The position numbers were made by a program, and so were the translations under genes. Of a stretch of 64,000 nt of DNA, positions 19,646 through 64,000 are shown piece by piece. The stretch comes from Cyanophora paradoxa CCMP329 (lineage: Eukaryota; Plantae; Glaucophyta). Positions within the stretch are counted from its first letter, which is position 1. The number at the start of each line of letters is the position of its first letter. The notes below the pieces were generated by a model. The model saw nothing but the letters and a program-made list of their open reading frames with translations. It made no database searches and was not told where the DNA came from. The stretch lies in contig QPMI01000407.1 of assembly GCA_004431415.1 (NCBI GenBank), positions 32,936 to 96,935 of the forward strand. The letters are read 5' to 3'.

Positions 19646-22600
19646 GGCCCCGACAAGCACGTAGCACGTGCACTGAATTTCGAAGCACTGGTCATGATGG
19701 TCGGGTCCGAATTCGATGCTGCAGCTGGTTCGCAGTCCGAGTAAAGTGCACTGCGGCAATTGCAAGCCGCTAATCGATTCATTGGCTCGACAGCAATGTA
19801 ATGGATTGAACACATATAAGTTATTGTAATTCATAACAGGAGTAGTGTAAACATACTTTCCTGCTTTTATTTTTCCATTAAAATATGAATTGAGTTGACT
19901 GGTAAGATCTGCTTCTGTAATGCATCTACTAATAGTCGAGCTATCTGTGGGGTTCATAGCATAAAAGTTTCTTGCATAAGCATTTCCACGAACAAGTAAG
20001 GTTTTATCAAAGTAATTTTGCGAATTGTGGAAAAACCATGTTTCTTCAAACATAGGTCCTGCTGGCTCTACAATCTGACCCGATCCTACATACATTGTGT
20101 TGTTGGCTCTAATTGTGGTTGCTGTGAAGGGATCAAGAGTTGGTCTATTGGTCAAATCATTGTAGTTGCCCGAGAAAATCGCTGGTTTGTTATAAATATC
20201 TGTATTCCAATCATGAGTGTGTGCAAAATCTGTTATCTCTGCCTTTGTGTGATTGTGAGCAAAATCTGTAATCTCTGCCTTTGTGTGATTGTGAGCAAAA
20301 TCTGTAATTTCACTCTTCACATGAGTGTGTGCAAAATCTGTAATCTGTGACTTTGTGTGAGTATGTGCGAAATCTGTGATTTCAGATTTAAAATGAGTGT
20401 GAGCAAAATTCGTAATATCTGCTCTGGTGTGGGTGTGAGCAAAATCTGTAATTTGTGATTTTGTATGAGTGTGTGCAAAATCTGTGATTTCTGCCTTTGT
20501 GTGGGTGTGTGATCTATTATTCAGATCGAGAAAACTACCTGAGTATGCAACAGGGTGTAAATTGGATGGGGTGGGTTTATTGATGAGATCATTATAATCT
20601 CCTGTGAAAGAGATTATTTTCAGTTCACCCCGTCCAACATAATCGGAAGGGAGATCGATTTTAATGGGCATAATAGCAGGATCAATAGGAATCTCGTACT
20701 CAGCTCCTGGGTGAACCACAGGAAAGACTTGATCACTTTCAGTGTGAACAAAAAAGTTGTCAGCAGTCACTGTTCCATCGATAGTTCCACCTGTCAGGGG
20801 AAGATAATTGCCTGTCACAGCGAGACCAGCAATAACTAAGGCGAGTTCTGTTTCATCTACATAGTTTTGGGCTTGAAGGTAATCCTCTGTAACCACTCTG
20901 GATATAGTCTCGTTGTGAATGTTTTTTGCTGCTGCCCTCTGATTAATTTCTAAAACACCCTCGCCAACGCCACCATTATAGTTGGTTTTTATCCATGCTA
21001 TTTCACATTTCTTATAATCATCTCGGTTTCCAATTAAAGCATCTGGTAAAAGACGTTCTCGGCTGAAAACTAATTTCGGTCTTGATGAATCTAAATCGCT
21101 AACATCTGTTACGTTGATCTGGATTGCAGAATGAAAATCAGCATGAGCAAGAGGATCTAATGGAAGAGAAGGCAAAGGAGGGAGAACAGATGTCATTTCG
21201 ATGTCAGAGGCGTAGTAGTTTGTAACATAAATACTGGGAAATGTGTCCTGCAAGCCGATATTTCCACCTGCAGCAACTATCTCCATTTCGCGGGGAATCC
21301 GTACAAACAAAGAGCCTGACATGTCAGTGTTGGCACGAATTCCCTGCCTGTGGACATAGTGTTCATTCAAATATAACCTTTCAGGGGTGTTGATTGATTT
21401 GTAGAGAGAGACAGCTAGTGTGACAGGAAGCTCTGACTTTGCGAACTCGGGTTGCTCATCGATCTCACTCCAAACATGTCTGTGATCCTCAGGTGGAAAT
21501 TCAAGCGGTATATTATCAAGATCACCCCAGTCGTGTCTATGATCCTCTGGTGGAAATTTAAGCGGTCTATTGTCGATATCGCCCCAATCGTGTCTGTGAT
21601 CCTCAGGTGGAAATCTATCTGGTTTATTATCTATTTCATCCCAATCATGCCTGTGTTCCTCTGGTGGAAAATTCTCAGGTTTGTTGTTAATAGATTCCCA
21701 GTCCACTGTGAACTCCAAGGGGAAGAAAACAGGATCAAAGCCATCTGGAAGCAGCTGCTCATGCGGAATCACAGGCTGCTCGTATTCAATTTCTTGAACG
21801 TCTAATCCGTCGGGAATTAATTGCTCCTCCGGCTCTGTGTACATTTCTAGCGGGAAAACTTCGATATCAGGTGACAGGTACTCTTCGTGCGGATGCTTAT
21901 AGGGTTCTATCACTGGGCGATTCCTGACAGCCTCCCACGAAATAATATTTTGCCCGAATGGAACTGTTTCATCAGCAACTCGCTCTCGACCTGGTCCGTC
22001 CGGGGTTGGCGGCTTTGGTAGCCCTGGAAGAGGTGGTATAGGTGGTATAGGGACAATAGGTCCGAAGTAGTAGTTGAAAATGTTGATCACCTCCTCTTCA
22101 GTGCTAACCTTCTTACCATCTTGGTAAATATTTGTTCCATGAATATTTCGCCACTGCCTGGTGCGGAGCCCTAGATCGTAACTGTCATGCAACGCCGGGA
22201 GCAGGTGCCTGTCAGCCTCAATCAAGATAGAGCCAAAGGTGCATCCAGGAATATCTAACCTGGTGGCTGGCTCGGTATCGATTTGATTTACATCAAAACC
22301 GTATAAAATATTTGCTTCTCGTGCAGCTGTAAAAAGTAAATCCCAGGGAAACGGCTGGATTTGTGATGCTAGCACTGATATTCCTGCAGGCGCAGCGTCG
22401 CTGCTTGTCTGCGACTCTTCGCCAAGGAGAATTCGCCCTGTAATGTGAGCCGCAGTCTTGTTTGTGACAGCATTGGATTCATCAATTAGACGTAGAGCTG
22501 ATGTGTGGACCCCTCTATCATTTTGGAGCCTAAAGATTAATCTACCAGAATCATACTTGGAAACTGTGCCTGAGGAGGCAATTCGCAGGTGCCGCGGCAA

Positions 22601-22855
22601 CGCCCTGGATCCGATTATTTCAGCAACATAATTCTCAGCTGGACCCAGACAAAATCTCTGTGCAATATCCGGGGCGCCAACATGTGAGTTGCGCAGAATT
22701 AATGCAGCTGGACGATTAAACTCGGTCCTGTGGATGTCACGATCAGCATTGTAGTCTGCCAAGATGCTTCCAAATACGCGAATATTTATATGCCGATCAT
22801 CCACGAGATCTGGAGCTTTACGAAGTGGCACTGGCTTCTTCAAGATGTAGGACAT
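19607..22855 (-). CDS. viral fibre/spike-like protein with phage tail-fibre repeats (last ~60 codons run into host DNA)
   Basis: YDLGLRTRQWRNIH; 4x FPPEDHRHDW.. (19 aa); YLPLTGGTIDG; F(T/S)GxYNDLxNxP; 8x HTHTKxEITDFA (12 aa). Homologous to 61877-64000. Confidence 0.75.
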   Translation of the reverse strand: MSYILKKPVPLRKAPDLVDDRHINIRVFGSILADYNADRDIHRTEFNRPAALILRNSHVGAPDIAQRFCLGPAENYVAEIIGSRALPRHLRIASSGTVSKYDSGRLIFRLQNDRGVHTSALRLIDESNAVTNKTAAHITGRILLGEESQTSSDAAPAGISVLASQIQPFPWDLLFTAAREANILYGFDVNQIDTEPATRLDIPGCTFGSILIEADRHLLPALHDSYDLGLRTRQWRNIHGTNIYQDGKKVSTEEEVINIFNYYFGPIVPIPPIPPLPGLPKPPTPDGPGRERVADETVPFGQNIISWEAVRNRPVIEPYKHPHEEYLSPDIEVFPLEMYTEPEEQLIPDGLDVQEIEYEQPVIPHEQLLPDGFDPVFFPLEFTVDWESINNKPENFPPEEHRHDWDEIDNKPDRFPPEDHRHDWGDIDNRPLKFPPEDHRHDWGDLDNIPLEFPPEDHRHVWSEIDEQPEFAKSELPVTLAVSLYKSINTPERLYLNEHYVHRQGIRANTDMSGSLFVRIPREMEIVAAGGNIGLQDTFPSIYVTNYYASDIEMTSVLPPLPSLPLDPLAHADFHSAIQINVTDVSDLDSSRPKLVFSRERLLPDALIGNRDDYKKCEIAWIKTNYNGGVGEGVLEINQRAAAKNIHNETISRVVTEDYLQAQNYVDETELALVIAGLAVTGNYLPLTGGTIDGTVTADNFFVHTESDQVFPVVHPGAEYEIPIDPAIMPIKIDLPSDYVGRGELKIISFTGDYNDLINKPTPSNLHPVAYSGSFLDLNNRSHTHTKAEITDFAHTHTKSQITDFAHTHTRADITNFAHTHFKSEITDFAHTHTKSQITDFAHTHVKSEITDFAHNHTKAEITDFAHNHTKAEITDFAHTHDWNTDIYNKPAIFSGNYNDLTNRPTLDPFTATTIRANNTMYVGSGQIVEPAGPMFEETWFFHNSQNYFDKTLLVRGNAYARNFYAMNPTDSSTISRCITEADLTSQLNSYFNGKIKAGKYVYTTPVMNYNNLYVFNPLHCCRANESISGLQLPQCTLLGLRTSCSIEFGPDHHDQCFEIQCTCYVLVGAAWPQWITIGLRT

Positions 22856-22879
22856 TTTTATATAAGCCCCCTTTTAAAA

Positions 22880-24364
22880 ATGAAGGTCATTCTCTCACTA
22901 TCAGGTGGAGGTGCTCGTGGTATAATTATTGCCAGAATTCTACAGCGGATCGAGGCGATTACTGGGAAAGCAATTCCACAACTGTTTGATTTCTTTGCAG
23001 GCACCTCAACAGGGGCAATAATAGCGGCCGGTTTGGCTATCCCATCAACTCCAGGCTCTGTTCTCGCTTATCGATATTCTGCAGGTGATATCTTCAGTTT
23101 ATATCAAACGAACCTACCTGTAATATTTGCAAATCCGAGATCACTCACAAGCTTGCTCTCAGGAAGCCGCTATGATGCAAACCCTCTAGAGTCGGTGCTC
23201 ACAGACGTTGCCCTAGACTACACAATTGCAGAATCGACCAAAGACATATTAATTACAGCGTTTGATACAGTTCGGATGCAGCCCGTAGTTTTCACCAAAG
23301 ATGGGCCATACTCGAGCACGCTGATTCGTGATGCAGTTAGAGCATCTTCTGCAGCGCCAACATTCTTTCCACCGAAGGTTCTAGGAGACAAAAACCTTGT
23401 TGACGGGGCCATCGCCTGTTTGAATAATCCCTCAGTTGCTGCACTCAGCCACGCCAGCAAAATTTATGATGCAGAGGATCCAATTGTTCTTGTGAGCATC
23501 AGCTGTGGTGAGGTCCAAGCTAGTGAGCAACTGACTGCAGGCTTTTCGAATGCAGAGACGTCAGGCTGGGGCGCCCTGGGCTGGATCCTATCCCTCTCAG
23601 GCAGCCCTATTATTTCTATGCTAATGGCTGGGAGCGAGCTGGAATCGCACTTTCAAATGCAGGAGCTGCTTCCAGTTGATGCAGATAGGAATCTCACTAG
23701 ATACTGGCGTTTAAGTGTTCCGCTGCCAGCTGCAGTCATGAGCAAGCTTGATGATGCCTCGCCTTCGAATATTTCTTATTTGATTTCCACGACTGATTTA
23801 TGGCTGAAACAAATCGAAATAAATGCTAAAATAAATGCACTCTGCAGTTTTCTATTGGCGAACTACGACCTACTGAACGATGAGAGACTTATCATATCGT
23901 CTACTTTAACAGTTGAGCCTCCATTTGATGTCAACTGGTTTATAATTCCAGATGCGAATATCACAAGCAACGACTTCGAGGAATTGCACCCACCTTCTCA
24001 TGTGCGACCCAACTCTACAGGGTTTCAGGGGGGAACATTACCTAATCCCTGGATCAAAGTCGAGTTTCCCAAGCCTTTTGAGCTACATCAAATCATTATG
24101 TATGGGCCAGCCTTTGCTGCCGGAGTCCTATTTAATTTCAGCATTCTGACCAACTTAGGATATTTACGAGACGGGGCACTATTTGAAAACACGGTCCTAT
24201 CAAATGTGCTTGCTGCGAACCCAACTATGACAGGCTTCGATCTAATGCATAGTGACTCGCATTTGATCACCCCACAGGTGTATAACTATGTGCAAATTAT
24301 AACAAACGAATTTATAAATGTGAATGCGTTCCGACTTGATTTCCGGGGACGTTACATTAATTAG
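22880..24364 (+). CDS. patatin-like phospholipase with C-terminal discoidin (F5/8 type C)-like domain
   Basis: LSLSGGGARG oxyanion loop, GTSTG nucleophile, ASSAAPTFF, LVDGA. C-terminus IPDANIT..PWIKVEF..YVQI..FRLDF.G. ATG at 22880 preferred over the ORF-track start. Confidence 0.9.
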   Translation: MKVILSLSGGGARGIIIARILQRIEAITGKAIPQLFDFFAGTSTGAIIAAGLAIPSTPGSVLAYRYSAGDIFSLYQTNLPVIFANPRSLTSLLSGSRYDANPLESVLTDVALDYTIAESTKDILITAFDTVRMQPVVFTKDGPYSSTLIRDAVRASSAAPTFFPPKVLGDKNLVDGAIACLNNPSVAALSHASKIYDAEDPIVLVSISCGEVQASEQLTAGFSNAETSGWGALGWILSLSGSPIISMLMAGSELESHFQMQELLPVDADRNLTRYWRLSVPLPAAVMSKLDDASPSNISYLISTTDLWLKQIEINAKINALCSFLLANYDLLNDERLIISSTLTVEPPFDVNWFIIPDANITSNDFEELHPPSHVRPNSTGFQGGTLPNPWIKVEFPKPFELHQIIMYGPAFAAGVLFNFSILTNLGYLRDGALFENTVLSNVLAANPTMTGFDLMHSDSHLITPQVYNYVQIITNEFINVNAFRLDFRGRYIN

Positions 24365-24689
24365 GCGGCGGCATGAATGCCCAGGAAATCAAAGAGAGTC
24401 CAAGACGTGTTGGAATAGTTCTGCCAGATTTATCTTTCTCCCAAAATGGTGCTCCATTACGCCCTCCCAGTCGCCTCTTTATGTAATTCTCTCTTCGCTG
24501 ATACCAAGTTGTGTTTTTGGTTGCGAGCTCCTTTTTGATTCCGTCAGGACCAAATCGGCGGTAAGCTTGCAGAAAACCTAGGTTTGTTTGTCTGCTTGGC
24601 TTATCTCCAATCGCAACAAGTGATACTTTTTTGTCCCGCATCAATGGCAAGTACTTTTCAATCTGAGCTATGGGCATCAACTGCGACAT
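24357..24689 (-). CDS. small basic viral hypothetical protein (110 aa)
   Basis: Clean ATG ORF after AAAA, filling the gap between convergent genes; GFLQAYRR..W..RR.NYI.R..PTR..LSLI.WAF.P. Confidence 0.7.
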   Translation of the reverse strand: MSQLMPIAQIEKYLPLMRDKKVSLVAIGDKPSRQTNLGFLQAYRRFGPDGIKKELATKNTTWYQRRENYIKRRLGGRNGAPFWEKDKSGRTIPTRLGLSLISWAFMPPPN

Positions 24690-24716
24690 TTTTGATATAT
24701 TGTGCCGCTTTTAAAA

Positions 24717-25673
24717 TCAGTGCGGAGCCAAGAAGGCTCCTTGCCTTCGGCTTTCCCTAGTTATGAACTGCAGTTCACCAGACCAAGGCAGGCCGTTCAG
24801 TGATACATCATCACCATCTCTGTCTACAATGCGCAGTCGCAAGGAAGTCAACACAAGACGCTCTTCGATGGGGATCCATTCGCCGTTGTGATCCTGATTT
24901 ATGTAAACGAACTTGCCAACGTCCTGGCTCATTTGAATTCGAGCAAGCCCATAATTGCACATTGTTTTGGCCCCACGGCGAAGCTTTGAAGCAAATGGCC
25001 GTAGCTCTTCGCAGACAAGGAAGAGGTACTGGTCGCTATTCATATCGATTATCTTTGGAAATTCGACAGCATAACCAAGTGGCTCACTCCGCATTCTTTC
25101 GGTGAAATCCACGCCATATTCAGGGTGTGAAGGTGTTACTGGAATGCCTGCAACCTCTAGATATCGCTCAGCTGCAGTTACTGGTCTTTGCCCTCCTTCA
25201 ATCATGATAGGAGACAGCTGGAGGGGCTCATTTCGGTTCAGCCCTAGCAGATTCGATAGAGCTTTGAACTGGCAGGTCACTGTGCAGGAACGGTTGCAAT
25301 AGGCAGACATCTTCAGTGTCTCTGGGTCCCGAAACAATTTGAAATATGCTATTACGATTCCCCCCAGTTCAAACTTAAACGATAGGCCAAAGTTGTAAAG
25401 ATCTGTTTCGCCCATATTTGCAGTAGTAATTATACCAGGCTCAAAAACTGCCAGATTTTCCGTCCAAATGTTGGGAAAGGTGATCGAAAGATACTCATCT
25501 TTAATGCTGGTATAAAGACTATTTGCGAACTCACACTGGGTAAGTCGAACAGCAACTGGATTGATTATAGGCTCATTGATTTCGAGCACAAAGTTTGCCT
25601 CTGAATCGATCGGTCTTCTGTCTCTGCTGTCAAAGGTAAGCCTGGCGCAGCGTCGATGCTTGTCTTCGACCAT
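24717..25673 (-). CDS. minor capsid (penton-like single jelly-roll) protein 1
   Basis: FDSRDR..F.L....I.N...VRL...EF.NS.Y at the N-terminus; YLFL; L..LRLRIVD..G..V.LNG..WS.EL.F at the C-terminus. Confidence 0.8.
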   Translation of the reverse strand: MVEDKHRRCARLTFDSRDRRPIDSEANFVLEINEPIINPVAVRLTQCEFANSLYTSIKDEYLSITFPNIWTENLAVFEPGIITTANMGETDLYNFGLSFKFELGGIVIAYFKLFRDPETLKMSAYCNRSCTVTCQFKALSNLLGLNRNEPLQLSPIMIEGGQRPVTAAERYLEVAGIPVTPSHPEYGVDFTERMRSEPLGYAVEFPKIIDMNSDQYLFLVCEELRPFASKLRRGAKTMCNYGLARIQMSQDVGKFVYINQDHNGEWIPIEERLVLTSLRLRIVDRDGDDVSLNGLPWSGELQFITRESRRQGAFLAPH

Positions 25674-25699
25674 TTTTATTCTCTAACTGATATAAAAAG

Positions 25700-26656
25700 A
25701 TGCCGACGGACTACGTCTGCATTGCAAGTCACCTAGCAGATGAGCTTTTATCAACCTCAAAATTCAAGGTTAGACTGCCTAAAATTTATCAGGATGTGAA
25801 AGCTGTGCGCTTGGTATCAGCTGAGATCCCCAACACAATGAGCACAATTGATATACTCGATCCAGCAGAGGATTTGGTCTTTGACACCTATATATATTGG
25901 TGCAAATATGATCCTGCAAATGAGGGACCAGACCCACCTCAGCCAGGCTTTGGTGTGTGGAATAACATTGCGATTCCACCTGGAAATTACGACGTCACCT
26001 CGCTTGTGACTAAGATAAACGAAAGGTTGACGGGGACTGGTATCACGTGCACGTATAATTCAGCGGTTAAATTAATAGGGTTCACAGCTAGCTTCGAGTT
26101 CTTTATTGCTCTGATGTTGCCACCTAACCAGGGTGGGCGGGAAGTCAGAAACTACCAGGCCGTTGCAAGGGCTCAGCGAACTGCAAAACTTCTGGGGCTG
26201 CGATCAATTCTACCGATCCGGTCTAAGGATTTATCTGTCGATGTTCAATATATAGAGGGCGCTTATGAACCTGATGTCACTCCCGATGATCATGTGCTCC
26301 TACGCATTCCTGAAATTGGTGACCTTGTCAGTATGCCCAATACTTCAATACCTGGCTTCTTTGCCAAAATTAGCATTCCAAACAGCCTTCGTCCTGGCGA
26401 GATAGCATACTATGATTCAACTGAAGCAACTCCTTTGTATAAGTATGTGTATTCAAAGCTGGACCTCTACTCTGTGACTATTGAGATTTACGATTTTATG
26501 CAGCGAATTGCTGATTTAAATGGAGCTCCTGTCTCATTTATTCTCGAAATTCGTTATGGTCCAGACGAACCCAATGGTGATGTTGTCTACGAGCTTGCAA
26601 AGCTTCAGCTCCAGAAAAGGTCAAAGACATATCCTTGGATCAATTCGTCAAATTGA
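25700..26656 (+). CDS. minor capsid (penton-like) protein 2
   Basis: FKVRLPKIYQDVKAVRLVSAEIPN, IPPGNY....L...IN, IEIYDF....DLNG..VSFILEI. Confidence 0.8.
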   Translation: MPTDYVCIASHLADELLSTSKFKVRLPKIYQDVKAVRLVSAEIPNTMSTIDILDPAEDLVFDTYIYWCKYDPANEGPDPPQPGFGVWNNIAIPPGNYDVTSLVTKINERLTGTGITCTYNSAVKLIGFTASFEFFIALMLPPNQGGREVRNYQAVARAQRTAKLLGLRSILPIRSKDLSVDVQYIEGAYEPDVTPDDHVLLRIPEIGDLVSMPNTSIPGFFAKISIPNSLRPGEIAYYDSTEATPLYKYVYSKLDLYSVTIEIYDFMQRIADLNGAPVSFILEIRYGPDEPNGDVVYELAKLQLQKRSKTYPWINSSN

Positions 26657-26701
26657 GCTAAGCGCCCAAATTATTTTCTTTCACTGCAATTATATACTTC
26701 A

Positions 26702-28086
26702 ATGGATGTTACCCAAAACTTGCAGCGGCTCGGTCTCAAAGAGCTCCTGACAACTCCGCAGGAAGCAAAGGACTTCTTCATGAACAATGAGCTTATGTTA
26801 GGTCTAACCAGCCAAACAAAGCCTGTGCGTGTTGTTGTCAACCCAAGCAATGACTATGGAGACTGCTTCGGAAAGAGGGTTACTTATTTCCTGCCCGCTA
26901 CAATTTCCTTCAGGGGCTCGAACTCCAGTTTACCCTTCCAGAGCTGACAGCATTTACTGGTGACACTGACCTGGTTCGCACTGGGTATTTGCGGTCTGTT
27001 GGTGCTCTCGTAAAGCGAATCGAAATCAAATAGGCTTCCTACAGCTACATTGTCCCCGAGGACTGGCTTGTTCACAGCGCTCTGATTTTCAATGATGATG
27101 CTCAGCTTAAAAAGAAATACCGGTCCGGTGGCTGGCTACATGGAACACCACCTCAGGGGACAAATCGTGCTGGAGGCATTTTCAGTGTAAAAATCCCCTG
27201 TCCATGGGAGGGTTCAGTGCTACCCATTGGTGCTCTATCTGGCGAGGTGTCTGTCGAGGTTTGGTTCCGTGATCGTGCCCAGGGCTTCGTCGAAACCAGC
27301 TATGGTGGTAGGTTTGTAACAGAATATGCCATAGGCGGTGATGCTTCTAAAGAAGATGGACTCGGGAGCGTGGGAGCTGCTGCTGCATCCCTGCAAACAT
27401 TGGCCAGAATATAACCCCAATGTTCTCAGTGTCACCCCTGCCAATCCCGAGCTATCGAATCCAAAGATTATTGCTCACTGCATCAACGTTGATGAGGCCA
27501 CTTTTGCCCAGGTGATTGAGAAAGTCAAAACGTCTGGAATCGCAATTCCGCTACCGATGTCGGCTGGGTTGATGCTGATTCAATTACTTATGCAGGTGCG
27601 GGAGCGCCCACCCGGATTAATCTGTCTCAAATCAGTGGACTTTGCTACGGCCTGTTCGTTAGCATTCGTAAGCAGACAAATATGAACCAAACTGACGGAA
27701 AACACAGTGTCCTCAAAACCGAGGCAAATACTCGTGATATAACTATTTCCTGCGAATTGAATGGCCAGCGGCTTTATTCAAACGAGCCTGTTCCTCTATT
27801 GCAAGGTGCTGAACTCATCGCTGATGTCTTCAAGTGCTCAAATTTAGACGCGCCTCTTAACAGATATGTTCTGACTGGTTTGCCATTTTGCATTAGTGGA
27901 GATAAATCGATTCGAAATGCTGCTCAAACTGGTTTCGTAGATCTGACGAACTCGAGCAGCTGCTTCCTGAATATCATGAATCCTGCCGCTTACGATGCAA
28001 ACAACAAGATTTACGTCCAAATTCGCGCTCTCCTGCACACTGTCCTAATTGTTGATGCTGCGGGTCTTCGTAAGGTGAACCTCTAG
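26702..28086 (+). CDS. major capsid protein (double jelly-roll type), split by several frameshifts
   Basis: ~460 codons between penton and ATPase. Beta-rich pieces FG..V.Y.LP, F.V.IP.PW..LP.GAL..EV.V.V.F, GFVDLTN. 36 of the first 50 residues are identical to the element-2 homologue. Confidence 0.75.
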
Positions 28087-28111
28087 TCGTATCTCGGTAG
28101 TTAATTTTTTG

Positions 28112-28861
28112 ATGGATGAGTCTCAAGAACTCGCAAAGTTCCAGCCGGGAGAAATGAGGGTTCCTTTTAAGGCCCTGTTTATTTCAAAGTCTAATAGCGG
28201 CAAATCCTTCTATTGCACCAAGCATCTGCTGCGGCTGCTCTATCCAAAGATTAATCGAGTCGTCGTGTTTACAGCCACCAAATTCAATGGTGAATACTCT
28301 GCAATAACTAAAGAGCTTTACGACGATTTTCAGCCATCTATCGTTGCAGAAATCATTGATTCACAGCGCAATTTGATTGAAAACAAAAAGAAAGCGCCGC
28401 AGATATTGCTAGTCTTGGACGATCTTGTTGCCGCCTCTGAAACAGTGGATCTGCGAAATAGCAAGGCTGTAAATCGACTTTTTACGCAGGGCCGACATTT
28501 TAATATAAGTACGATTCTTATGACCCAAAAACTAACAGCATTAAGTCAATCTATAAGATCAAACAGCGATTACTGCTTTTTCTTCAGTTACAGCAACCAC
28601 ACTGAACTGGAGGCCATTTATAGAGAGTTTAGCCATCTTCCAAAAGAAGAATTTATTGCTTTATTTCAAACTTGGGCTCACGATTATCAGTGCCTAGTCC
28701 TGGATGGGACCAAATACGATACGGCCTGGTTCGTCGATAAAGCTGTTGAAGATAAGAGTTTTCGTTTTACAAAATGGGTTAAGAATGAACCTGAAGAACG
28801 TAAGACCGAAGATTCTTCGCCTGTTGTCTCTAAAAAGAAGCGTTTTAAAATCTTACCATAA
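28112..28861 (+). CDS. A32/FtsK-HerA family packaging ATPase
   Basis: Walker A SKSNSGKS, Walker B LLVLDD, GRHFNIS arginine finger, MTQ, IRSNSDY. Confidence 0.92.
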   Translation: MDESQELAKFQPGEMRVPFKALFISKSNSGKSFYCTKHLLRLLYPKINRVVVFTATKFNGEYSAITKELYDDFQPSIVAEIIDSQRNLIENKKKAPQILLVLDDLVAASETVDLRNSKAVNRLFTQGRHFNISTILMTQKLTALSQSIRSNSDYCFFFSYSNHTELEAIYREFSHLPKEEFIALFQTWAHDYQCLVLDGTKYDTAWFVDKAVEDKSFRFTKWVKNEPEERKTEDSSPVVSKKKRFKILP

Positions 28862-28870
28862 GAAAAGAAC

Positions 28871-29509
28871 ATGGGTCGCGGGATTCCTAAGAAGGGCTAT
28901 CGGGAACGACGCAAGGTTAATATATCTGAGCCGAACGCTCCACTGATTGAAAGCGGCTCAACTGTGGGTGCAGCTGTTGCTAATCCTAGTGGTGAGTTAG
29001 CTAGTGACCCCAAACTAAACGCACCCGTTGCTAAAACGATCGCCTCGGCAGCAGCTAATGCCAGTGCGGTTGACGACCGACAGAGCCAGGTCAAAATTGT
29101 AAACGAAATGCAGTCTGATATTGATGATGATGCTGCTAGAATTTTACAAGCGATGGCTAGCGAACCGAGATACTCCGGTCCAAAAATCAAGACAGCAACA
29201 GTATCAAAGAGTCAGATCGAGGAACTAACAGCTAAATTGCGAGATCTCGAGGCTCGATCGGCTAATATCGAATCATACGTTAAGGAAAAGCAAGAAAGAG
29301 CTAAGATCCGCGAGATGTTGCGAAGCGAAATGTTTAAGCACAGATCTATGGATGTGCCAGATTTACGCTATTTAAAAATCGAAAAAGAGAAGGCTTCACA
29401 AGCTCTCGATTCTGCCGAAGTAAAGCCAGCAACGCCCAATGTGTCTGAGTCCAACACTACGAGTTCTCTGATGAAGAATGCGATGGGTGGGCGGAGGATT
29501 CGTCTGTGA
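28871..29509 (+). CDS. conserved viral hypothetical protein (coiled-coil)
   Basis: TAKLRDLEA..YVKEKQERAK has a syntenic homologue in element 2 (TAKLKDLEAK..YV.EKKERAK, ~55600-55680). Confidence 0.75.
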   Translation: MGRGIPKKGYRERRKVNISEPNAPLIESGSTVGAAVANPSGELASDPKLNAPVAKTIASAAANASAVDDRQSQVKIVNEMQSDIDDDAARILQAMASEPRYSGPKIKTATVSKSQIEELTAKLRDLEARSANIESYVKEKQERAKIREMLRSEMFKHRSMDVPDLRYLKIEKEKASQALDSAEVKPATPNVSESNTTSSLMKNAMGGRRIRL

Positions 29510-30083: not shown

Positions 30084-30114
30084 TGTCTTTCACTTTTTAC
30101 AATCTGAGATCTCT

Positions 30115-30482: not shown

Positions 30483-30508
30483 TTGTTTGTGACGAAAAAC
30501 CCGCAAAG

Positions 30509-35745: not shown

Positions 35746-35810
35746 TTCTGCCACGTTGTTCTACAGACCGCGCTCAAGGGGGCAGCGCTCCTCTTCGTCT
35801 ATTCAAGTTG

Positions 35811-51522: not shown

Positions 51523-51559
51523 AGAATTCTCTATATATATTAAGAGAGACAGAGGAAAA

Positions 51560-51810: not shown

Positions 51811-52019
51811 AATTATTTTTCCCAGCATATTACTAGGCTGGGATATGCTGTTTATTCGCTGAAATACCCATTCATCCTTTTGTATCTAAACCACTCGATA
51901 AGTCGTGTGGAAATATTTCGTAGGATACTTCTCGATTTCCAACAAAAAATGATTGGGGGACCCAAAACTACTTAAAGAAAAATCTTCTATATATATAAAA
52001 GGACCCCCAATCGCTGAAA

Positions 52020-54330: not shown

Positions 54331-54363
54331 ATTAATGATTGAGATTTATATGTATTTTTATAG

Positions 54364-54482
54364 CCTTACTGAAAATGGTTTGTGTGACAGGTGTCACAGG
54401 TCCATCCCAAGGAAAGCCCTGGTGAAAAGTTGATTTTCAAAATCGATGGGATAGACCTGTCACACCTGTCACACCTGTCACA
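54364..54482. repeat. third iteron-like palindrome, inverted relative to copies 1-2
   Basis: CTTACTGAAAATGGTTTGTGTGACAGG is the reverse complement of 45989-46015; the right arm has CCTGTCACA x3. Confidence 0.9.
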
Positions 54483-54883
54483 ACACCTATCGAAAAAGAC
54501 CAAAATTTGACAAGAATACTTAAGGCTTACTTGATTGTGTATAGTGAAGACAAAATGGCAAAGACTCTTGATGAGATGACCATGACTGAGTTAGATAAAT
54601 GCATAAAGCATGGAGATATAGGGGCATATATCGAAATGTCACAGAGATTGATAGGTTACAATATGTATGCAGCAAACCAAAGAGAAATAGATCAGTAAAC
54701 ATTCACATAACTGTTTCAGTGTCTGAGAATGCAAACAAAAAACAACAAAAGCATATTTACAAAAGTTATCTGTGACTTGATTGCAAGTATAAAGCCAATT
54801 CCTTTGTATATATTTTTATAGCTGCCTCAGTGCATACTGAGACCGCTTTTTCTCAATTATCTTATAGACCTGGGGGTCCATTG

Positions 54884-55066
54884 CTACTTCAGTTGGCAAA
54901 TAATATTTAATCGGTCTCCTCTGGGTCTCTGCTCCTCTTTTTGGGCTTTTCTGCGATAATAGGATGCCAGGGCTTGCTGCTTTTTATACTCTCTATATGC
55001 TGGGTCCTCTCTATATCGTTTCTGCATTGCTAGAATGTGTCTAATAGACCCTCAGTAAAGGTTCAT
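54884..55066 (-). pseudogene. small basic protein (RYREDPAYR), frameshifted
   Basis: QKRYREDPAYREYKKQQALASYYRRK resembles 30509-30784. Confidence 0.55.
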
Positions 55067-55086
55067 CACTGGTAAACTCGATTAAA

Positions 55087-55359
55087 CTAATAGTATCCTC
55101 CATTTATATTCCCAGAGAAAACGTTTTCTGCTGGCAGAGAACTTCTCCTTGGATACTCCTGTTGCTCATATGTATACTCTGTGGGGTCTGCTGGCATTGA
55201 CTCCACAGAAACTGTTGATCTCCTTCTCTCTCTTGCTTCTGAGGCATTATCCTCATTATCTGACATCTCAAACTCCACTGTTGTCTCACAACATCCACTG
55301 TGGCAATTGCTCACCACATGCAGACTGAACATCTCGAAGAACTTTCGTATTATGTCCAT
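55087..55359 (-). CDS. viral hypothetical protein (90 aa)
   Basis: ORF in a gene-dense block, codirectional with its neighbours. Confidence 0.5.
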   Translation of the reverse strand: MDIIRKFFEMFSLHVVSNCHSGCCETTVEFEMSDNEDNASEARERRRSTVSVESMPADPTEYTYEQQEYPRRSSLPAENVFSGNINGGYY

Positions 55360-55379
55360 ATCTCTAATAAAACAGAGAA

Positions 55380-56105
55380 AATTAAAGCCAAACTCGTCTT
55401 TTATATACTGTTGGGGCTACTCCCTTTTCTACTTCAGCTTTGGTGGCACCAGGTTCAATGGTTCCCTTTTGGGTTTTGTTTTCATTTCATCTACTGCCTG
55501 CTCATCGATTTGGTTCTCTTTCTTAGCAATAAACTGTTTATCTGGGACACCAGTAATCCCATTTTATAAACTTCCTTTCGAAGCATCTCCTTTAGCTTGG
55601 CTCTCTCTTTCTTCTCAGTAACATACTGCTCCAAGGCACTGATTTGGCTTCCAGATCTTTGAGTTTAGCAGTCATCTCATCCCATTGAGCCTTGGGAATT
55701 CGATGAATATTTTGAGTGGGAGCAGTCTTGTATGTGACTTCACCAGCCATAGACTGATTACCTTGTCTGATTCCTTACTAAGACCTTCACCTTTGCGAGC
55801 CAGTGAAGATCTTGCAAGCCTAAACCTTTATCATCAGCAGCACCAATAATTCGCCTGGCACCCTCAGCAACAGCTTTCATTTTGAGGCTTCTGGTGAGAT
55901 GTTGAGTTGGTCACTGGTTGAAGCTGTGGGGCTTTGTCATCGACTGATTCCTCATAGGCAGCATTAAGGGGTCTTCTTGTTGTGAGGGCTTCACCTCATT
56001 CATACCATTGAATTTCATTGGTTCAGTGTTAATGGATCCATTGTTTCCACCACCTGAATAGCCAACAGCCCCAGCTGGGATCCCTATCTTTCGTTTGGGA
56101 GGCAT
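55380..56105 (-). CDS. homologue of 28871-29509, frameshifted
   Basis: Syntenic position after the ATPase; shared TAKLKDLEA and EKKERAK motifs. Confidence 0.6.
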
Positions 56106-56183
56106 TGTATCTTTATTAGAATGAGAGATAATTTTATAAACCGCGTTTATATCGCATCAATTTATTGCTATGGACTTGGCTTT

Positions 56184-56879
56184 TCACTTCTTTGGGGCTT
56201 CCTCTTTCTCTGGTGGTTTCAGTTCATCTTCTTTCTTTTTTGGCTTCCTGTGGAAGCGAGGAAATGGGAAATCTTTCACAAGCTCAGCTTTATCTACATA
56301 GTATTTAACTGAGTAGTTTGCAGAGGACCAAATGATATACTGATAGGAGTGAACATACTCTTCAAACATCTTGTAAAATCCTCTTTATTTCGCATTATAT
56401 TGTATTCTTCCTCTATGGCTTCAAGTTCTTTGCGATTAGCAGCACTTAGAAACAGCATAATCAGAATTAACTCGAATAGTCGAAGAGACTTTCTTAGCTT
56501 TTGTGTGATGCAGATAATGGATATTTTCGAATGGCGACCTCTGGAATACAGAGATCCAATTTTCTTGTGAGAATCACTATCTCATTATCATTAAATCATC
56601 TAAAACAACACACATGGTTAACAGGTTCACCTTTTTCGATTTTCTCTTGCCTTTCATCTAGCAATTTAGCAATGTAAGCATCCCATTTTCCAGTTGCACT
56701 GTTGCAACTTTCCAGAAATGATTGAAGCTGGTTCCACTCACAACTAACAACATCAATCTTTTTGGCATCATGTAATTGCTTTAACCAATACTTTACACAG
56801 CTTTTTTCCAGTACATTTTTGCCTATAAAAATGGCTCTGAACATTTCATTTCAGAAACATTAATCTTCAAATCTTGCAT
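56184..56879 (-). CDS. A32-like packaging ATPase, frameshifted
   Basis: FRAIFIGK..GKS region, GRHSKISIICITQKL, IR.NSDY, EEYVHSYQ align with the element-1 ATPase. Confidence 0.8.
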
Positions 56880-56892
56880 TGTTGTATATCTT

Positions 56893-58284
56893 CTAATAAA
56901 GACAGATAAAAATAATGCAGGGAGACTGAATATGTCTATAAATTATTCTACGAACACCTGAACCGTCTATAATGAGGAAACTATGCATGAGAGCGCGAAC
57001 ATTAACATCGATTCTTATCTGAAGGCATGTAGAGGTGAGGAATGAAGATGAGGAATTTGTCAGGTCAACAAACCACTGGCAATATTTCGAATCGCCTTTC
57101 TCCATCAATGCAGAAACTTATCCTGAAAGGACATAGCGATCTGCAACCTTATCCATGTTAGAGCATTTGAAGGCATCAGCAATTAGCTCAGCACCTTTGA
57201 GTAGGGAAATTGGCTCAGTGGCAAAAAGTCGCTGTCCATTTATTTCAGTGAATGTTATCTCTTTGGAGTTGGCATAGGTCTTAAGAACACTGTGGGAGCC
57301 ATTGGATTTGTCAACAGTTCATATCACGAACTGAAACAAGCAGAGCATAGACAAGACCTGAGATTTGAGAGAGGTTAATTCGATTGGGTTGGGCATTGCC
57401 CTTGGCAGGGAAAGCAAGCATCTACAAATCCAATATCAAGGGAGGGAATAGCCATGCCAGTAGTCTTTACTTTTTCAATTACAGTAGCGAAAAGCTCATC
57501 AGAAACATTAATAGCATGCATGTAAAGGCGAGGAGAAGTAATTGAAATACAGGGGTTGTTGCACCAAGACTGAAAGTGTGATGTTTTGACCAACATGGGC
57601 AAGTGTAGCATTAGCAGTATCACCAAGACCATCATCTTCTGTCTTATCAGCAGCTGTCCCACCAACAACAGGGAGAGAGCGACCACCATAGGAAGTTTCA
57701 ACATAACCCTTTCCAGCATCCTTAAACCAAACAGTAACAACCATTTCACCAGATAAAGCACCAAGGGGAAGGTAGTGATTTAGCCAAGGCACTGGGATTT
57801 CAACGAAAAATGAGCCACCAAGTCGGTTGGTTCCATGAGCAGGGATGCCATGAACCATGCCCATTGAGCGTTTCTTTTTAGCTAGTTGATCCTCCGAATA
57901 ATAGACCAGGGGGAAATGAGCAAGGAAATCAGAAGGGATGTGGTAGGTGTAAGATCCATAGGTAATTTCAAGTCGCTGAACTAAAGCACCAACTGGGCGA
58001 GTGTATCCATTGCGAACTAGATCTTCACCAGCAAAAGTGATGGCTGGAAGGTCGAAAGCAAGTTCGAGTTTTCCACAGAAATTGTAGCGAGGTAGCTTGA
58101 AGGAAATGCGATTTCCAACATTATTCTCAAAAGTATTGCTGGGATTCACAACAACTAGAACTGGCTTAGACTTGGATTCGAGACCAAGCATAAGGGAGTT
58201 ATCCAGGAAAAAGGCTTTCGCCTCCTCTGGGGTTGTTAGGGCTTCTTTCAGCGAAAGTCTTTGAAGAGTGGAAGTGATATCCAT
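56893..58284 (-). CDS. major capsid protein, frameshifted
   Basis: MDITSTLQRLSLKEALTTP..; LPLGALSGE; GAELIADAFKCSN; FVDLTNSSS, all collinear with 26702-28086. Confidence 0.78.
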
Positions 58285-58329
58285 TATATTCTCTTTTATT
58301 ATACTGCAACATAAAAAATCTACCAATGA

Positions 58330-59339
58330 TCCTTAATTTATGCGAAGCTTGTAATAACTGGATAGGAAGGGTGAAGCTGTGACATTCTCATCTTAAAGTA
58401 TTCATAAACTGGGTCCCTGCTGGCTCATCACCATAGCGAATTTCAAAGGTCAGATGAACAGGTTGACCCTCAAAATCAATTGGTTCATTAATAGCATTTA
58501 CAATATCAACCGAGAAAGTGGATAATCCAACCTTTTATTATAGTATTTGTAAAGTGGATGAGCCTCTGTTGAATTGTAAACAACATGCTCACCATAATCT
58601 TTGTCAGGGACCACTATTTTGTGAAAGTAACCAGTCAGAAGACCATCCCCACATTGCACCAGATCACCCAGCTCCTTTACTCTCACAAACAAAACACTGT
58701 CCCTGGTCTTCTCAGGCTCAAAAGAAGATATAATGCCATTCACTCGACCACCAGTAAAGATTCCATCAGTGAGAGCATCATAAACTTGTGATTGGATTGG
58801 GAATTCCATATCTTCCAGGATCAAGACCAAGCAGTCTAGCTGAACTCAATAGCTTTTGGATTGTTTGTTGGCTTGGGTTCACAGCACTGAGAAAGCCAGT
58901 AAAATGGTACTGCTGAGTGGAATATAATTCGTTTCAGTGATTCATCCCATTTGCAGCGAATGGATGGTTGGGGATTTCTGCCTTCGAATTTAGAGTTAAT
59001 TACATTCACCAGTTGTTGGTGGCTTTGGATGGGGGTGTTTCGACTTATAATGAATTGTTTCCATTGTTCAAGTCAGCAGCTGGGCGAACTGTTGGAATTC
59101 CTGAGCTTCCAGCTCCAGGAGTTTGTTCAGAATAATAAATGCTAAATGCATTGTCAACTGTCACATCTCCCTTTGGTTTCACCACTCACCATAGGGATGC
59201 TGTTATAAAATTCGGCTGAGACCAGTCTCACAGCCCTCACATTCTCATAACTACTGGGGAGTCTAGCCACAAAGCTTGATGTGGGACCATCACCAGAGAT
59301 TGTATTAAATGAGCTAACCTCGATGTAATCCACAGGCAT
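58330..59339 (-). CDS. minor capsid protein 2, frameshifted
   Basis: MPVDY..FVARLPSSYENVRAVRLVSAEF; YNSTEAHPLYKY matches element-1 YDSTEATPLYKY. Confidence 0.78.
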
Positions 59340-59368
59340 TCTTCTTTTATCTATATTTATATATTAAA

Positions 59369-60295
59369 ATGAACGACTTGTTAATATTGATAGCAGGGAT
59401 AGAAGCCAAGGACAAAATGAAAACTCTTACAGGGTCACCCTCACAACTCCAGTAGAGAGACCAAGGGAATGCAGGGTTCTATATGCAGAGATTCCAAACA
59501 GTATCTATAACAGTGTGGGAACTGATCATCTAACAGTTCAGTTTAATTACCAAGATGGTTCATACAATGAAATCATCACACAAAAGTGTATCCCCTTCCC
59601 AGTGGCTACATCAACAGGGTCATTTTGGGGTAACACACCCTTATAATTATGGGCTGAACTATTCAAGCTTCCAAACCATTGCAGGCAAAACAGTAGCTTT
59701 TGAGTTCAAGATATTCTATAACCCAACTACCTATAAAGTGGAGTTTTACAGTAACCATGAGTTTCGTTTTATTGCAAGCAACCAGAGAATAGGGAAGCTT
59801 TTGGGTGTGAGTTCTACTGAATACACCAATGGGTATTATAGCACTCCTCCTGTTGGTGGATCTCCCTATCGACCTGAGAACCTTTTAAAGTATGATGGCA
59901 AACCTATTACACCTGATCACCCAGCATGGGGAATCACCTTCTCAGGACCCAGACTCTCCTCTAAGCCCTTGCAATATTATTTTGACAGCAGGAAGATGTC
60001 TGATATGAATGCTGAGCAGTATCTGTACATGCATATTAAAGAGCTGTCCCCTTTGCCAGCAGACACAATATAATTCCGAAATCGCAACCACATAACCAGG
60101 GGCAATCCTTAGATTGCAATTGAGTAAAGATATAGGTGGCTATGTTTACCATAGTGGTGAGCATGCAGAATTCATTCAGATAAATGACAGAAACCTGGTG
60201 ATAAGGGAACTCACAGTGAGTTTAAAGATTACTTTGGTGAACTGATTGATATGAATGGAATCGATAATTCTTTTCAGTTGGAGTTTATCGAATAA
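59369..60295 (+). CDS. minor capsid protein 1, frameshifted
   Basis: NIDSRDR; PITPDHPAWGI.F..R.SSKPL..DMNAEQYL matches element-1 PVTPSHPEYGVDF..RSEPL..DMNSDQYL. Confidence 0.78.
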
Positions 60296-61833
60296 AGGCA
60301 CCTGTAAAGTCAACTCTCATTGTGGGAGCATTCACATACACAAGGGGATAAATGCGAATATATTGATTCTGAGAGAAAAACCTATGTAAAAAGCATCCTT
60401 GATGCTGAGAGGAAATCCACTCAATAGAGCCACATCACCTGAGTTGTGAGCATTGTTAATGTTCTCACAGACATATATTTTGTTTGCCCATCTGATCGAA
60501 TAAAAGACCAGTTGATCCCATCAGTGGATGTTGCCACATTGAAAGTCTTAATAAAAGCATTGGTGTCCCCTGATCCATAGGCAATCACAGAGGAGAGTTC
60601 AAAAGTATATGGGAAAGCAACTTGAAGGTATTCAGTGGGGGTTTCCCATATCTGCTCAGGAGCATAGGCTCCAGCTTCCCAGCCAAATGCTGAAGGTCTA
60701 GCCATGAAAGGCTCTTTACCTGTCACAGAGGATGAGGCAGTGAAGGCATCATCTGCAAGCTGATACCAATTGCATCCAAAGGAGGTGATGTAGTGAGAGT
60801 GGATGAGATGTAAGCCTTTGAAGGGTTCTTTAATTCATAGTTTGCTACTAGAAGCTGCAAAGCTTATTAATCATATCATTGTTTGCTGCAATGTATGTTT
60901 CAGTGAATGCAAGCATATCTGGGATTTTAGAAGTGTCATCCAGGGAGCTTACTATATGATTTGGAAGAGGGACTGATAGCCTATAGTATCTCCCATAATC
61001 CTGATCATAGTTGTAGGGTAACAACTCCTCCATCTTATCAAGGGCAGAAAGCTCACTTGCAGCCATGAGCATGTTAATCAATGGGCTTCCATCTGTTGAG
61101 GCAATCCATGAGAGAATGCCCCAGCTGTTGACAGTCTCATAAGCATAACCCACATAATCAGACTCTAAATGTGGGTCCACCTCTCCACAAGAGATACTTA
61201 TTACTATAATATCATCATCATCACTGTAAATCTTCTTTGCATGGCTGTAACCACACACACTGGGATTATTGTTTCCCGAAATGGCACCATCAATGAGACA
61301 GACATATACTCCCCGATTGAAATCAACAATGCTTACAGGAGAGAAATATGTAGGAGCAGCAGAAGTAGCCCTAGCAGCAATCTTACAAGGCATAAAGTTG
61401 TAATTGTTGTCATTTGTGATAAATATTGGTTTCATATTCTGAGTATCAAAGGATGTATCACAATGTCCTTTAGGGAATCCTGTATTAGTGATTCACCAGT
61501 AACTGAATTGATTGCAGTCTCCAAGGGTCCCACATCATACTTTGTATTAAAAAGGGCATTTTCGATGATATTTCGAGGATTTGCGAAAATCAAGGGCAGT
61601 TGAGTTAGGTAAATATTGTGTAAATCGTTTGCTGTCAGTTTAGGTTCACCTGGTTTATCAGGATGCCTTATATTCAAACCTATTGCAATGATCCCACCAG
61701 TGGAAGTTCCACTCACAAGATCCACAAGATCGATTATTCTCCTGCCAGTTCGATTTTCGATTTCTTTTAGCAGCCTGGTTATGATAATGCCCCTTGCACC
61801 CCCCCTGAAACTTAAAACGACCTTGAGAGGCAT
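60285..61833 (-). CDS. patatin-like phospholipase + discoidin (F5/8 type C) domain, frameshifted
   Basis: GGARG, GTSTG, ATSAAPTYF, LIDGA. C-terminal FTASSS..YLQVAF..FIKTFNVATSTDGINW..YIRIYP..MRVDF is a clear discoidin pattern. Confidence 0.88.
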
Positions 61834-61876
61834 CTTTTACTTATCAGGAATTTTATAAATCCATATAGTAAAAGCC

Positions 61877-64000
61877 ATGAGCTTCAATTACCCACCAAAT
61901 CTAGAAACCATTCAAGATGATAATGCAAGCAGCACCAAGCATGTGAACTTTGATAATATTAAAGTAAAGGGTTCAGTTTCAATTGACCACAGCTCTGATA
62001 ATTCATCAAAGACTCAATCAAGGGAGCATGCTTTATCTGTGAATCAAACCGATCCAGATAAAGAGGATGTCAGTGTTGCTTTAGTTTGGGTAATGTGAAA
62101 GCAAACCAAGTGGCAGAGATCAAAGCCACCAGAAGGAGACCTAGGAAACTGAAAACCAGTGGCACTCACCCAGATATACCTTCCAGGTTCGATAGTGGTC
62201 GATTGATTTTCAATGTTCAAGATGAGCAGGGCAAACAGAACACAGCTTTGCGAATTTACAATGAGGGCAGCACTGCAAAAGCTGAGGTCCCCCAAGTATT
62301 GCAAGTGGGTCCCATTGCCAACACAAATCAGGTCTCCTACACAAATGATGTCTACCCCAAGGATATTACATATGACTTTGCAAGGAATGAGCCTTTTGGG
62401 TTCTTTACTCCAAAAGATGTCCATCAAAAAAAGCCATCAATTACAATCAACAGTAGCCCCAGTCAACCAGTAGCAATCCATTTACATCCTGATTTAGTCG
62501 AAATGGATAGGCACCTTTTGCCTTTGTATAGCAATGTGAAAGACCTTGGAATTCGAACCAGGCAATGGCGAAATATCCATGGCAGCAATGTGTATGCAAA
62601 TGGGAGAAGCTTGTAGTGAGAACCATAAGGAGATCTTTGAGTATTATGGACCTGTCCCAGTTCCCTTCCATTTCCATGGACCACCGATTTAACACCAAAA
62701 AGCAACCTGGAGAGAATACACAGCAACTGAAGATGTAGCCTTTGGGCAGCATATTGTTAGTTGGGAGCAAGTTCGCAATAAACCTATAATTGAACCCAGA
62801 AAGCAAATAGATGAGCAGTATTTACCTCCTGAAGTCGATATATTAGAGCTTGATGAATATCAATTCGTTCCAGATGAGGAAGAGTATTTACCAGATGGTT
62901 TTGACCCACAAGAATATGAATATGATCAGTTTGACCCCAATGAGGAGGAGATACTACCAGATGGCTTAGATCCCAAGAGTTTGAGTATGAGCAGAACTAT
63001 GAACCTGATGAGGAGTATTTGCCAGATGGGCATGATCCACCAGCTGTTGATATGAGCAACCTTATGAACCCCATGAGGAATTATTACCAGATGGATTTCG
63101 ACCTGAGATCTGGGAGTTCTTTCCTGATTATGAACAAATTAATAATAAACCTGCAAAGTATCCCCCAGAGGATCACAATCATGATTGGGATGAGATCTTA
63201 GGCAAACCTCAAAATACCACCAGAGGATCACAGGCATGATTGGGGTGAAATTGATGGGATTCCAGATAGTTCCACCAAGCAAACATGAACACACTTGGGA
63301 TGAGATCAATGACCAACCAGAATTCGCAAAGTGAGCCTCTTGATAACTTGGGGGTTTCTCTTTACCAGACTTGCAATGTCCCTGAAAGAATCTTTTTGAA
63401 TGAACACTATGTACATGTGAATGGGACACTTGCAAATTCAGCTATGAGAGGACCACTTCATATTAGGACATTACCAGGCTCTTTTGAAACCCCACCACCA
63501 CCAGGAGCAACCATACCAAATATCTTTGTGTCAAGCTACATGGAGGCTGACATTCCCACAGATACATTCAGAGTCCCAACAGACCCAGCAACCTACCAAA
63601 ATTACAACTCTGCTATACAGGTTCATGTAGCAGATGTAAGCAGTTAGATGGCTCAAGACCAATGATAGTTTCAGTCGAGATAAGTATTCCTACATTCCCA
63701 TAGTGGGAACTGCAAATGATAATTATGGAGGGCAGAGCTTGCATGGATTAAAACAGATTATGGTGGGGTTCTGGAAGCCAATCAGAGGATGGCTGCAAAA
63801 AACATACACAATGAAAATATTTCGAGAGTGGTCACAGAGGATTACCTTACTGCTGTAATCTTGTAATTTCGTAACTCTTGCTATGCTTGGAATTATGTAA
63901 CAAAATGAACTTGCTGATGAATTATCTAAGTATCTTCCACTTGTTGGGTGGGACAATCACAGGAAACCTTACAGTAAATAGTAATATTTACAGTAGCAAT
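61877..64000 (+). CDS. viral fibre-like protein, frameshifted, runs off the window
   Basis: SRFDSGRLIF, DRHLLP..DLGIRTRQWRNIHG, LPDG.DP repeats, YPPEDHxHDW repeats and PERIFLNEHYVH, homologous to 19607-22855. Confidence 0.8.

Follow-up and report, generated by a model that had tools for sequence, protein, structure and literature searches.

A 64,000-nt stretch of the genome of Cyanophora paradoxa CCMP329 (contig QPMI01000407.1, positions 32,936-96,935; hereafter "the window") contains two related elements of low GC content, element 1 (E1) and element 2 (E2), which lie in opposite orientations according to six-frame translation and region-against-region comparison. We interpret them as two damaged copies of a multi-copy, Cyanophora-type family of Polinton-like viruses (PLVs), in which an inherited virion block is combined with polymerases of distant lineages, likely after replacement of the replication and integration block by recombination (probability approximately 0.8). 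The overall plan was common to both elements, with the virion block at one end and the replication block at the other. GC content was 0.45 in E1, 0.38-0.41 in E2, and 0.59-0.60 in the flanks.

The virion block of both elements

Seven genes matched in order between the elements, with identities of 33-54%: fibre, patatin-discoidin, penton 1, penton 2, major capsid protein (MCP), ATPase, and a conserved hypothetical gene. The E1 proteins matched E2 DNA in inverse order, and 36 of the first 50 MCP residues were identical; both results agree with the original prediction, made from the sequence alone, which had claimed the same order and orientation of the virion genes together with similarity of their proteins. 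Frameshift-aware alignments gave identities of 209/477 for patatin-discoidin, 96/287 for penton 1, 108/299 for penton 2, 76/204 for the ATPase, and 43/92 for the conserved hypothetical gene. The MCPs were identical at 235 of 433 positions, and the fibres reached 33-50% in long tblastn segments. Between the elements, the ATPase and both pentons scored 204-312, compared with at most 41 for shuffled sequences (four to six shuffles each). Past the hypothetical gene, no match between E1 and E2 was found at E 1e-3. The virion blocks differed by one gene, a 110-aa gene of E1 located between patatin and penton 1 and without a match in E2. A Tlr6F-like identity for this gene was rejected because no Pfam match was obtained (Tlr6F is DUF5754 in Table S6 of Bulzu et al. 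2025).

The nearest MCP relative among 1.84 billion representatives was P0001, a EukProt protein of C. paradoxa (64% identical over the whole length to the MCP of E1 and 59% to that of E2), followed by P0002; the other four of the six matches were short. By its length, contig name, and printed residues, P0001 is row 106 of Table S2 of Bellas et al. 2023 (PMC10120064), where it is listed as a confirmed MCP with an HHpred match of 98.5% to an iridovirus MCP. Row 107 of the same table agreed with the N-terminus of the E2 MCP at 44 of 50 residues, counted by eye. The similarity of both MCPs to a listed member exceeds the level taken here for belonging to the Cyanophora MCP clusters of Bellas et al. 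(>25% identity over 30% of the length). The predicted model of P0001 had low confidence (pLDDT 51); its top Foldseek matches were viral MCPs (E 1e-14), and every one of the 12 chains with Z ≥ 8 was a double jelly-roll protein of viral origin (the best with Z 13.0 and an rmsd of 21.6 across 265 residues). The MCPs of mavirus and Sputnik (Z 8.4 and 8.0, respectively) ranked below the capsids of nucleocytoplasmic large DNA viruses in a model that is too poor for class assignment. The MCP is predicted to be a double jelly-roll capsid protein, PLV-type in the broad sense. Pattern scans, which detect only close relatives, found no relatives of the MCP in IMG/VR or in the JGI metagenomes and none of the E1 ATPase or of protein P0008 in IMG/VR, and a word-indexed protein search with P0001 returned only P0001 itself.

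Both pentons weakly resembled viral clusters that include the Sputnik minor capsid protein. This resemblance is one of language-model (ESM) features whose recognition scores fall short of the reliable range; the two pentons fell into the same cluster, 26% of which carries Sputnik V18/19. No BLAST similarity was found between penton 2 and penton 1, and a single-sequence penton fold had a pLDDT of 31.5. The C-terminus of the E1 patatin aligned to the piece of E2 that matched F5_F8_type_C. The E1 fibre gene contains coding repeats of 36 bp and 57 bp (20178-20573 and 21459-21686), and contig joints skip repeat units, which suggests that copies differ in the length of their fibre. No maturation protease family was matched in 54 long open reading frames (ORFs) or in 97 short frames from unannotated gaps, nor did the adenain of an IMG/VR contig (L003), used as query, match anything in the window. 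The earlier statement that no protease is visible holds for the visible parts of both elements.

Polymerases and replication modules

The family B DNA polymerases of protein-primed type (pPolBs) of E1 and E2 were 23% identical over 197 aa (E 0.001), and their core identity to outside relatives was 40% and 54%, respectively, vs. about 23% between the two. The search with the E1 pPolB returned 243 relatives, all of them metagenomic, with the best at 37-38%. The search with the E2 pPolB returned 1816 relatives, of which P0127 was the best at 48%; after P0127, the relatives mostly carried Endonuclease_7, many were on large contigs, and one was from the dragonfly Ladona fulva. A quick tree included 48 of the 240 listed proteins, and a careful tree was built from 22 references (24 rows). 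In the 24-row tree, the E1 pPolB grouped with six metagenomic relatives (98/97), and the E2 pPolB and P0127 (100/100) were placed inside a clade of endonuclease VII (Endo VII)-type polymerases that included the insect protein; the two were found on opposite sides of a long branch (100/100). The approximately unbiased (AU) test rejected sisterhood of the two pPolBs (P = 1.45e-51, log-likelihood difference 243). Thus, the pPolBs are not sisters, as the original prediction had expected, and the contrary outcome that it named, a sister grouping, was not seen; we give them no formal class assignment.

Three IMG/VR contigs (L001, L002, and L003) with polymerases of either class carried candidate capsids without detectable similarity to this MCP; therefore, both polymerase classes travel with other capsids too. 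L001 (33-4496 and 5862-7280) has an Endo VII-type pPolB and its candidate capsid, and in L003 a pPolB of the E1 class occurs together with a lipase and an adenain-like protease (14213-14662).

The other differences that had been proposed between the replication modules were mostly recovered. The pPolB motifs were as quoted, with DVVSLYP/DANNLYG and YTDTDS/HDTDS sharing alignment columns. Six-frame maps had the pPolB-integrase pair pointing inward in E1 and outward in E2. Endo VII was limited to E2 (Endonuclease_7, E 1.2e-4, just under the Pfam cut-off), and a Pfam match to DNA_pol_B_2 was obtained in E1 only. For the PrimPol-D5 protein claimed for E2 alone, the helicase part was supported by matches to the PHROG DNA primase family (E 6.5e-25 and 1.3e-10), whereas the N-terminal primase part had no library match. 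The integrases were 26-27% identical. A pPolB and an rve integrase, which are features of canonical Polintons/Mavericks, were matched in both elements; the adenain/Ulp1 protease of those elements was absent from the visible parts. Near the N-terminus, both pPolBs have Cys and His motifs that appear to resemble, by sequence, the vOTU domain described in PMC11071308.

The integrase-pPolB-D5 block of E2 is bracketed by three near-perfect palindromes of 93 bp in an inverted arrangement. The arms of unit 3 were 96% and 94% complementary over 46-47 nt and 77% over 116 nt. No such palindromes were found in E1, and the motif had no exact matches in IMG/VR. They are likely origin or recombination sites. 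A contig joint that skips 45888-54382 was considered as a deletion and rejected; one of its sides is only 21-23 letters long, and the joint is consistent with a variant copy of the palindrome.

Probable replacement of the replication block and its alternatives

Non-sister polymerases under one virion block make replacement by recombination between co-resident elements likely. The virion block would be passed on as a unit, and the terminal replication and integration block would be replaced through such recombination. By analogy with known families, an intact virus would integrate with the rve integrase, its linear genome would be copied by protein priming, and the A32 ATPase would package the DNA into a capsid of double jelly-roll type that has two kinds of penton; the fibre may serve in attachment and the patatin-discoidin protein may breach membranes.

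Several observations weigh against this reading. Divergence is also considerable between the virion blocks (identity of 37% for the ATPase and 33-36% for the pentons), and the replacement may be old; with virion genes this diverged it cannot be called recent. No near-identical capsid pair with different polymerases was seen. The E1 ATPase scored 168 against the outside ATPase of L002, nearly as high as the 204 against that of E2. The tree references were picked by two queries, one of the 240 proteins was organism-named, and the class labels rest on motifs and Pfam. No pair of terminal inverted repeats and no target-site duplication was found within the window, where E1 is without its left end and E2 runs off; both elements are incomplete, and because one end of each is missing, no terminal repeats can be paired. 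In public-run contigs of one organism, the summed depth over both elements was far above that of the single-copy flanks (approximately 100 in run X1), a measure that by the tool's own warning is no copy number and is inflated by short contigs.

E1 and E2 belong to a multi-copy family with many related copies in the DNA of the organism. In run X1, the depth of E1 was approximately 4,900-10,900 over the virion block and 1,200-2,500 over the replication block, with an approximately fourfold drop at about 29 kb, at the module border, in all four runs. In E2, it was 19,000-33,000 over the integrase and pPolB, 13,500-40,000 over the virion block, and 4,800-9,300 over the D5 block at 51.0-54.9 kb; this three- to fivefold dip, also at a module border, was present in all three DNA runs. 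These steps are weak hints that module content varies inside each subfamily.

The palindromes allow for another origin of E2, in which a capsid-less, palindrome-bounded integrase-pPolB-D5 transposon, able to invert or move as a unit, became joined to a virion block by insertion or capture. The region at 46.2-54.4 kb is enclosed by an inverted repeat made up of units 1-2 on one side and unit 3 on the other, each with its flank, and such a composite would account for the opposite orientation of the pPolB-integrase pair. However, depth that is high over the integrase and pPolB and over the virion block but low over 51.0-54.9 kb suggests that the D5 part varies between copies rather than the whole bracketed block, E1 is without palindromes, and the palindromes reported with non-pPolB replication genes in Halocafeteria elements lie at the element termini (10.64898/2026.07.28.741278). 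We regard a composite E2 as unlikely. Doubtful, too, is the broader proposal that the integrase-pPolB-D5 genes form a palindrome-bounded cassette that inverts or moves alone, within an unplaced, glaucophyte-restricted lineage that still exchanges whole end cassettes. If true, it would be a visible mechanism for replication-module turnover in PLVs, and only such a cassette would add a mechanism.

That the modules of one or both elements adjoin only because an error-prone assembly of long reads misjoined copies of this highly repeated family appears very improbable. In favour of such an artefact, one-base frameshifts were numerous (mostly missing bases), the contigs of related copies had one-base insertions scattered over both MCP genes and other parts, and none of the contigs listed spanned a whole element. 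Because related copies carry one-base insertions there, the frameshifts are attributed to the present copies or their assembly and are likely assembly errors or copy-specific decay, not family traits. An artefact of this kind is opposed by the plan common to E1 and E2, by the continuous GC content over the E1 module border (0.446 and 0.453 on either side) and its similar values in E2 (0.38-0.41), and by the mixed replication genes tabulated among glaucophyte elements (PMC12220804). Vertical descent of both modules with faster-evolving replication genes, for which it can be said that the integrases are still alignable (349 residues at 26%), is hardly credible, since each pPolB is far closer to its outside relatives than to the other and the AU test rejects their sisterhood.

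Published relatives and other features of the window

The replacement reading of E1 and E2 concerns a family that is already in print. The lineage has been catalogued, albeit without a name or placement, and swaps of this kind are known. Replication-cassette swapping as originally proposed therefore stands in its related virion block and non-sister pPolBs, and falls in the supposition of a possibly undescribed lineage: the MCP family is present in Tables S2 and S4 of Bellas et al. 2023, and the gene set in Table S6 and the text of Bulzu et al. 2025. This agrees in part with one of the outcomes that the original prediction had listed as refuting it, an MCP within a described group with the same gene set; the group is catalogued, but no name and no published placement was found for it. 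Bellas et al. reported 366 MCP hits in the C. paradoxa genome, in clusters of 272 and 94 and covering approximately 7.3% of the genome (PMC10120064). For 156 glaucophyte elements, Table S6 of Bulzu et al. gives 85 with rve, 89 with lipases, 49 with PF03175, 21 with general PolB, 40 with D5_N, 34 with PIF1 helicase, and none with a protease; two matched the MCP-POL model and none the MCP-VIR model, with both Cyanophora MCP clusters pooled (PMC12220804). The same paper notes 11 glaucophyte PLVs in which discoidin occurs by itself or as a fusion with patatin, a PTR fibre from C. paradoxa, and incongruent polymerase and MCP trees of PLVs (PMC12220804).

The Cyanophora PLVs of these two studies share with E1 and E2 the MCP family, A32 ATPase, minor capsid protein, rve integrase, phospholipase, patatin-discoidin fusion, PTR fibre, lack of a protease, and mixed replication genes. 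The difference is that they are presented as counts and domain notes, in which the MCP cluster is neither named, nor placed, nor compared by polymerase class. In a literature search mostly without subscription journals, we found no dedicated description of this family, none of this swap in it or of three 93-bp palindromes, and no paper joining Polinton, endonuclease VII, and pPolB. A 2026 PLV framework notes that Trimcap B has two pentons and that several groups have phospholipases; neither Cyanophora nor glaucophytes are mentioned in its main text (10.64898/2026.06.19.733378). The phenomenon, gene set, and capsid family have been published, and so the gain is incremental: a concrete case in which polymerase replacement can be compared side by side, from a poorly described PLV family whose host is an early-branching relative of plants. 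Cyanophora is culturable and has hundreds of copies, which makes the end-module model testable at scale from the existing assembly.

Polymerase replacement under one virion set has been described in Caenorhabditis briggsae (10.1101/2023.08.22.554363), in adintoviruses (PMC8502044), and in PLVs generally (PMC4642659). The pPolB1 and pPolB2 Polintons of C. briggsae likewise combine one genome and virion set with two distant pPolBs (MCP 92% and pPolB 16% identical) and class-specific endonuclease inserts; in contrast, replacement was confined there to the pPolB, identity in the remaining genes is 66-92%, and those Polintons have a protease (10.1101/2023.08.22.554363). In the Cyanophora pair, integrase identity, orientation, and the D5 helicase also differ, identity in the virion genes is 33-54%, and no protease was seen. 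Alpha and Beta adintoviruses have two deep PolB classes, virion modules moving between them, and membrane-active accessory proteins, but differ in that their hosts are animals, they have an adenain protease, and PLA2X or gasdermin takes the place of patatin (PMC8502044). The E1 pPolB may be Alpha-like and the E2 pPolB Beta-like, judging by Pfam strength and the insect relative rather than by named references.

An end-module model has been published for entomopoxvirus-associated PLVs (PMC11296320), and the PLVs and virophages of Halocafeteria seosinensis have mobile replication modules with pPolB and D5 and palindromes (10.64898/2026.07.28.741278). These systems resemble E1 and E2 in having mobile replication and integration genes near one end, pPolB and a D5 primase-helicase in one element, and palindromes tied to non-pPolB replication. 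The Halocafeteria palindromes are inside terminal repeats, whereas in E2 one is internal, after the D5 gene, and inverted relative to the two near the left end.

The features of both elements are shown in Table 1. E1 breaks off at approximately 19788, where the fibre gene ends; related copies diverge leftward from there, and a loose contig end was present at this position in two of the four runs listed. The left end of E2 lies between about 45.1 and 45.9 kb, with a single-copy junction contig at 45002-45396.

Table 1. Features of the two elements, with positions in the window and the main supporting match.
Feature	Position	Strand	Remarks
E1, PLV copy	19788..35780		left end cut, right end approximate
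E1 fibre, phage-tail repeats	19788..22855	-	frameshift near C-terminus; PTR E 3e-4; PHROG tail protein E 2e-18
E1 patatin-like phospholipase with C-terminal discoidin-like domain	22880..24364	+	Patatin E 5e-25
E1 110-aa gene	24360..24689	-	no Pfam or PHROG match; absent from E2
E1 likely minor capsid protein (penton 1)	24717..25673	-	ESM features 0.97 to viral cluster
E1 likely minor capsid protein (penton 2)	25700..26656	+	same ESM cluster as penton 1, also 0.97
E1 MCP	26702..28086	+	291/454 identical to P0001
E1 A32-type packaging ATPase	28112..28861	+	Pox_A32 E 2e-9, above cut-off
E1 conserved hypothetical gene	28871..29509	+	last gene common with E2; 43/92 vs. E2
E1-only small ORFs (208-aa Cys-rich, 166-aa, 125-aa)	29457..30784		weak ExoX-like_C match, E 0.007
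E1 rve integrase	30763..31923	-	one open frame; rve_3 E 2e-8
E1 pPolB (PF03175 type)	31960..35078	-	frameshift near C-terminus; DNA_pol_B_2 E 4e-59
E2, inverted vs. E1	45300..64000		continues past window end
E2 palindrome unit 1 (93 bp)	45906..45998		folding z -13.6 (against 200 base shuffles, as for units 2 and 3)
E2 palindrome unit 2	46103..46195		in tandem with unit 1 at 197 bp; folding z -10.9
E2 rve integrase	46448..47833	-	one open frame; rve E 1.4e-4, below Pfam cut-off
E2 pPolB with Endo VII insert	47837..51082	-	three frameshifts in N-terminal part; 487/1048 vs. P0127
E2 D5-type superfamily 3 helicase with likely N-terminal primase	52143..54242	+	in pieces; PHROG DNA primase
E2 palindrome unit 3	54382..54474		directly after D5 gene; folding z -8.7; inverted with flank vs. 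units 1-2
E2 conserved hypothetical gene and ATPase	55471..56841	-	frameshifted; frameshift-aware alignment to E1
E2 MCP	56944..58284	-	frameshifted; 258/439 identical to P0001
E2 penton 2 (-) and penton 1 (+)	58353..60289		frameshifted; frameshift-aware alignment to E1
E2 patatin-discoidin	60300..61827	-	frameshifted; Patatin E 9e-10, F5_F8_type_C E 2e-7
E2 fibre	62062..64000	+	frameshifted, cut by window end; comparison with E1 (tblastn)

The original prediction placed the two elements, approximately 10 kb apart, in a transposable-element-rich hotspot, for which no support was seen. At 3.66 MCP hits per Mb, this spacing is unremarkable: for random placement in this host, another MCP gene would be expected within 30 kb to the left or right in approximately 20% of cases by arithmetic. 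No tRNA genes were found in the window, and ten of its proteins had no match in an exact-sequence collection. A possible RNA run gave 9 small pieces only.

Several repeats adjoin the elements. At the left edge of E2, a 283-bp AT-rich element resembling a miniature inverted-repeat transposable element (45370-45652) has inverted ends of 47 bp (81% complementary), and a 3.5-kb contig of the possible RNA run has most of it at one end. A high-copy GC-rich repeat adjoining the left end of E2 (44168-45150) is probably a retroelement piece and was also present in contigs of the possible RNA run. A direct duplication of 1.5 kb (12959-14453 and 18142-19645; 99% identical) stops 140 bp before the cut end of E1. 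Farther away, a large inverted repeat (6173-9725; 809 nt at 100% plus further arms) surrounds a 160-bp GC-rich tandem array and may represent a foldback element or else stem from the assembly. A GC-rich unit of 105 bp occurs in six tandem copies at 16473-17272, and two related copies (75% identical) of a palindromic element of approximately 250 bp are located at 41802-42399. Two host genes were recognized, the N-terminus of an XPG-family nuclease (5081-5494, minus strand) and a WD40-repeat protein (40023-41204, minus strand), the latter between the two elements.

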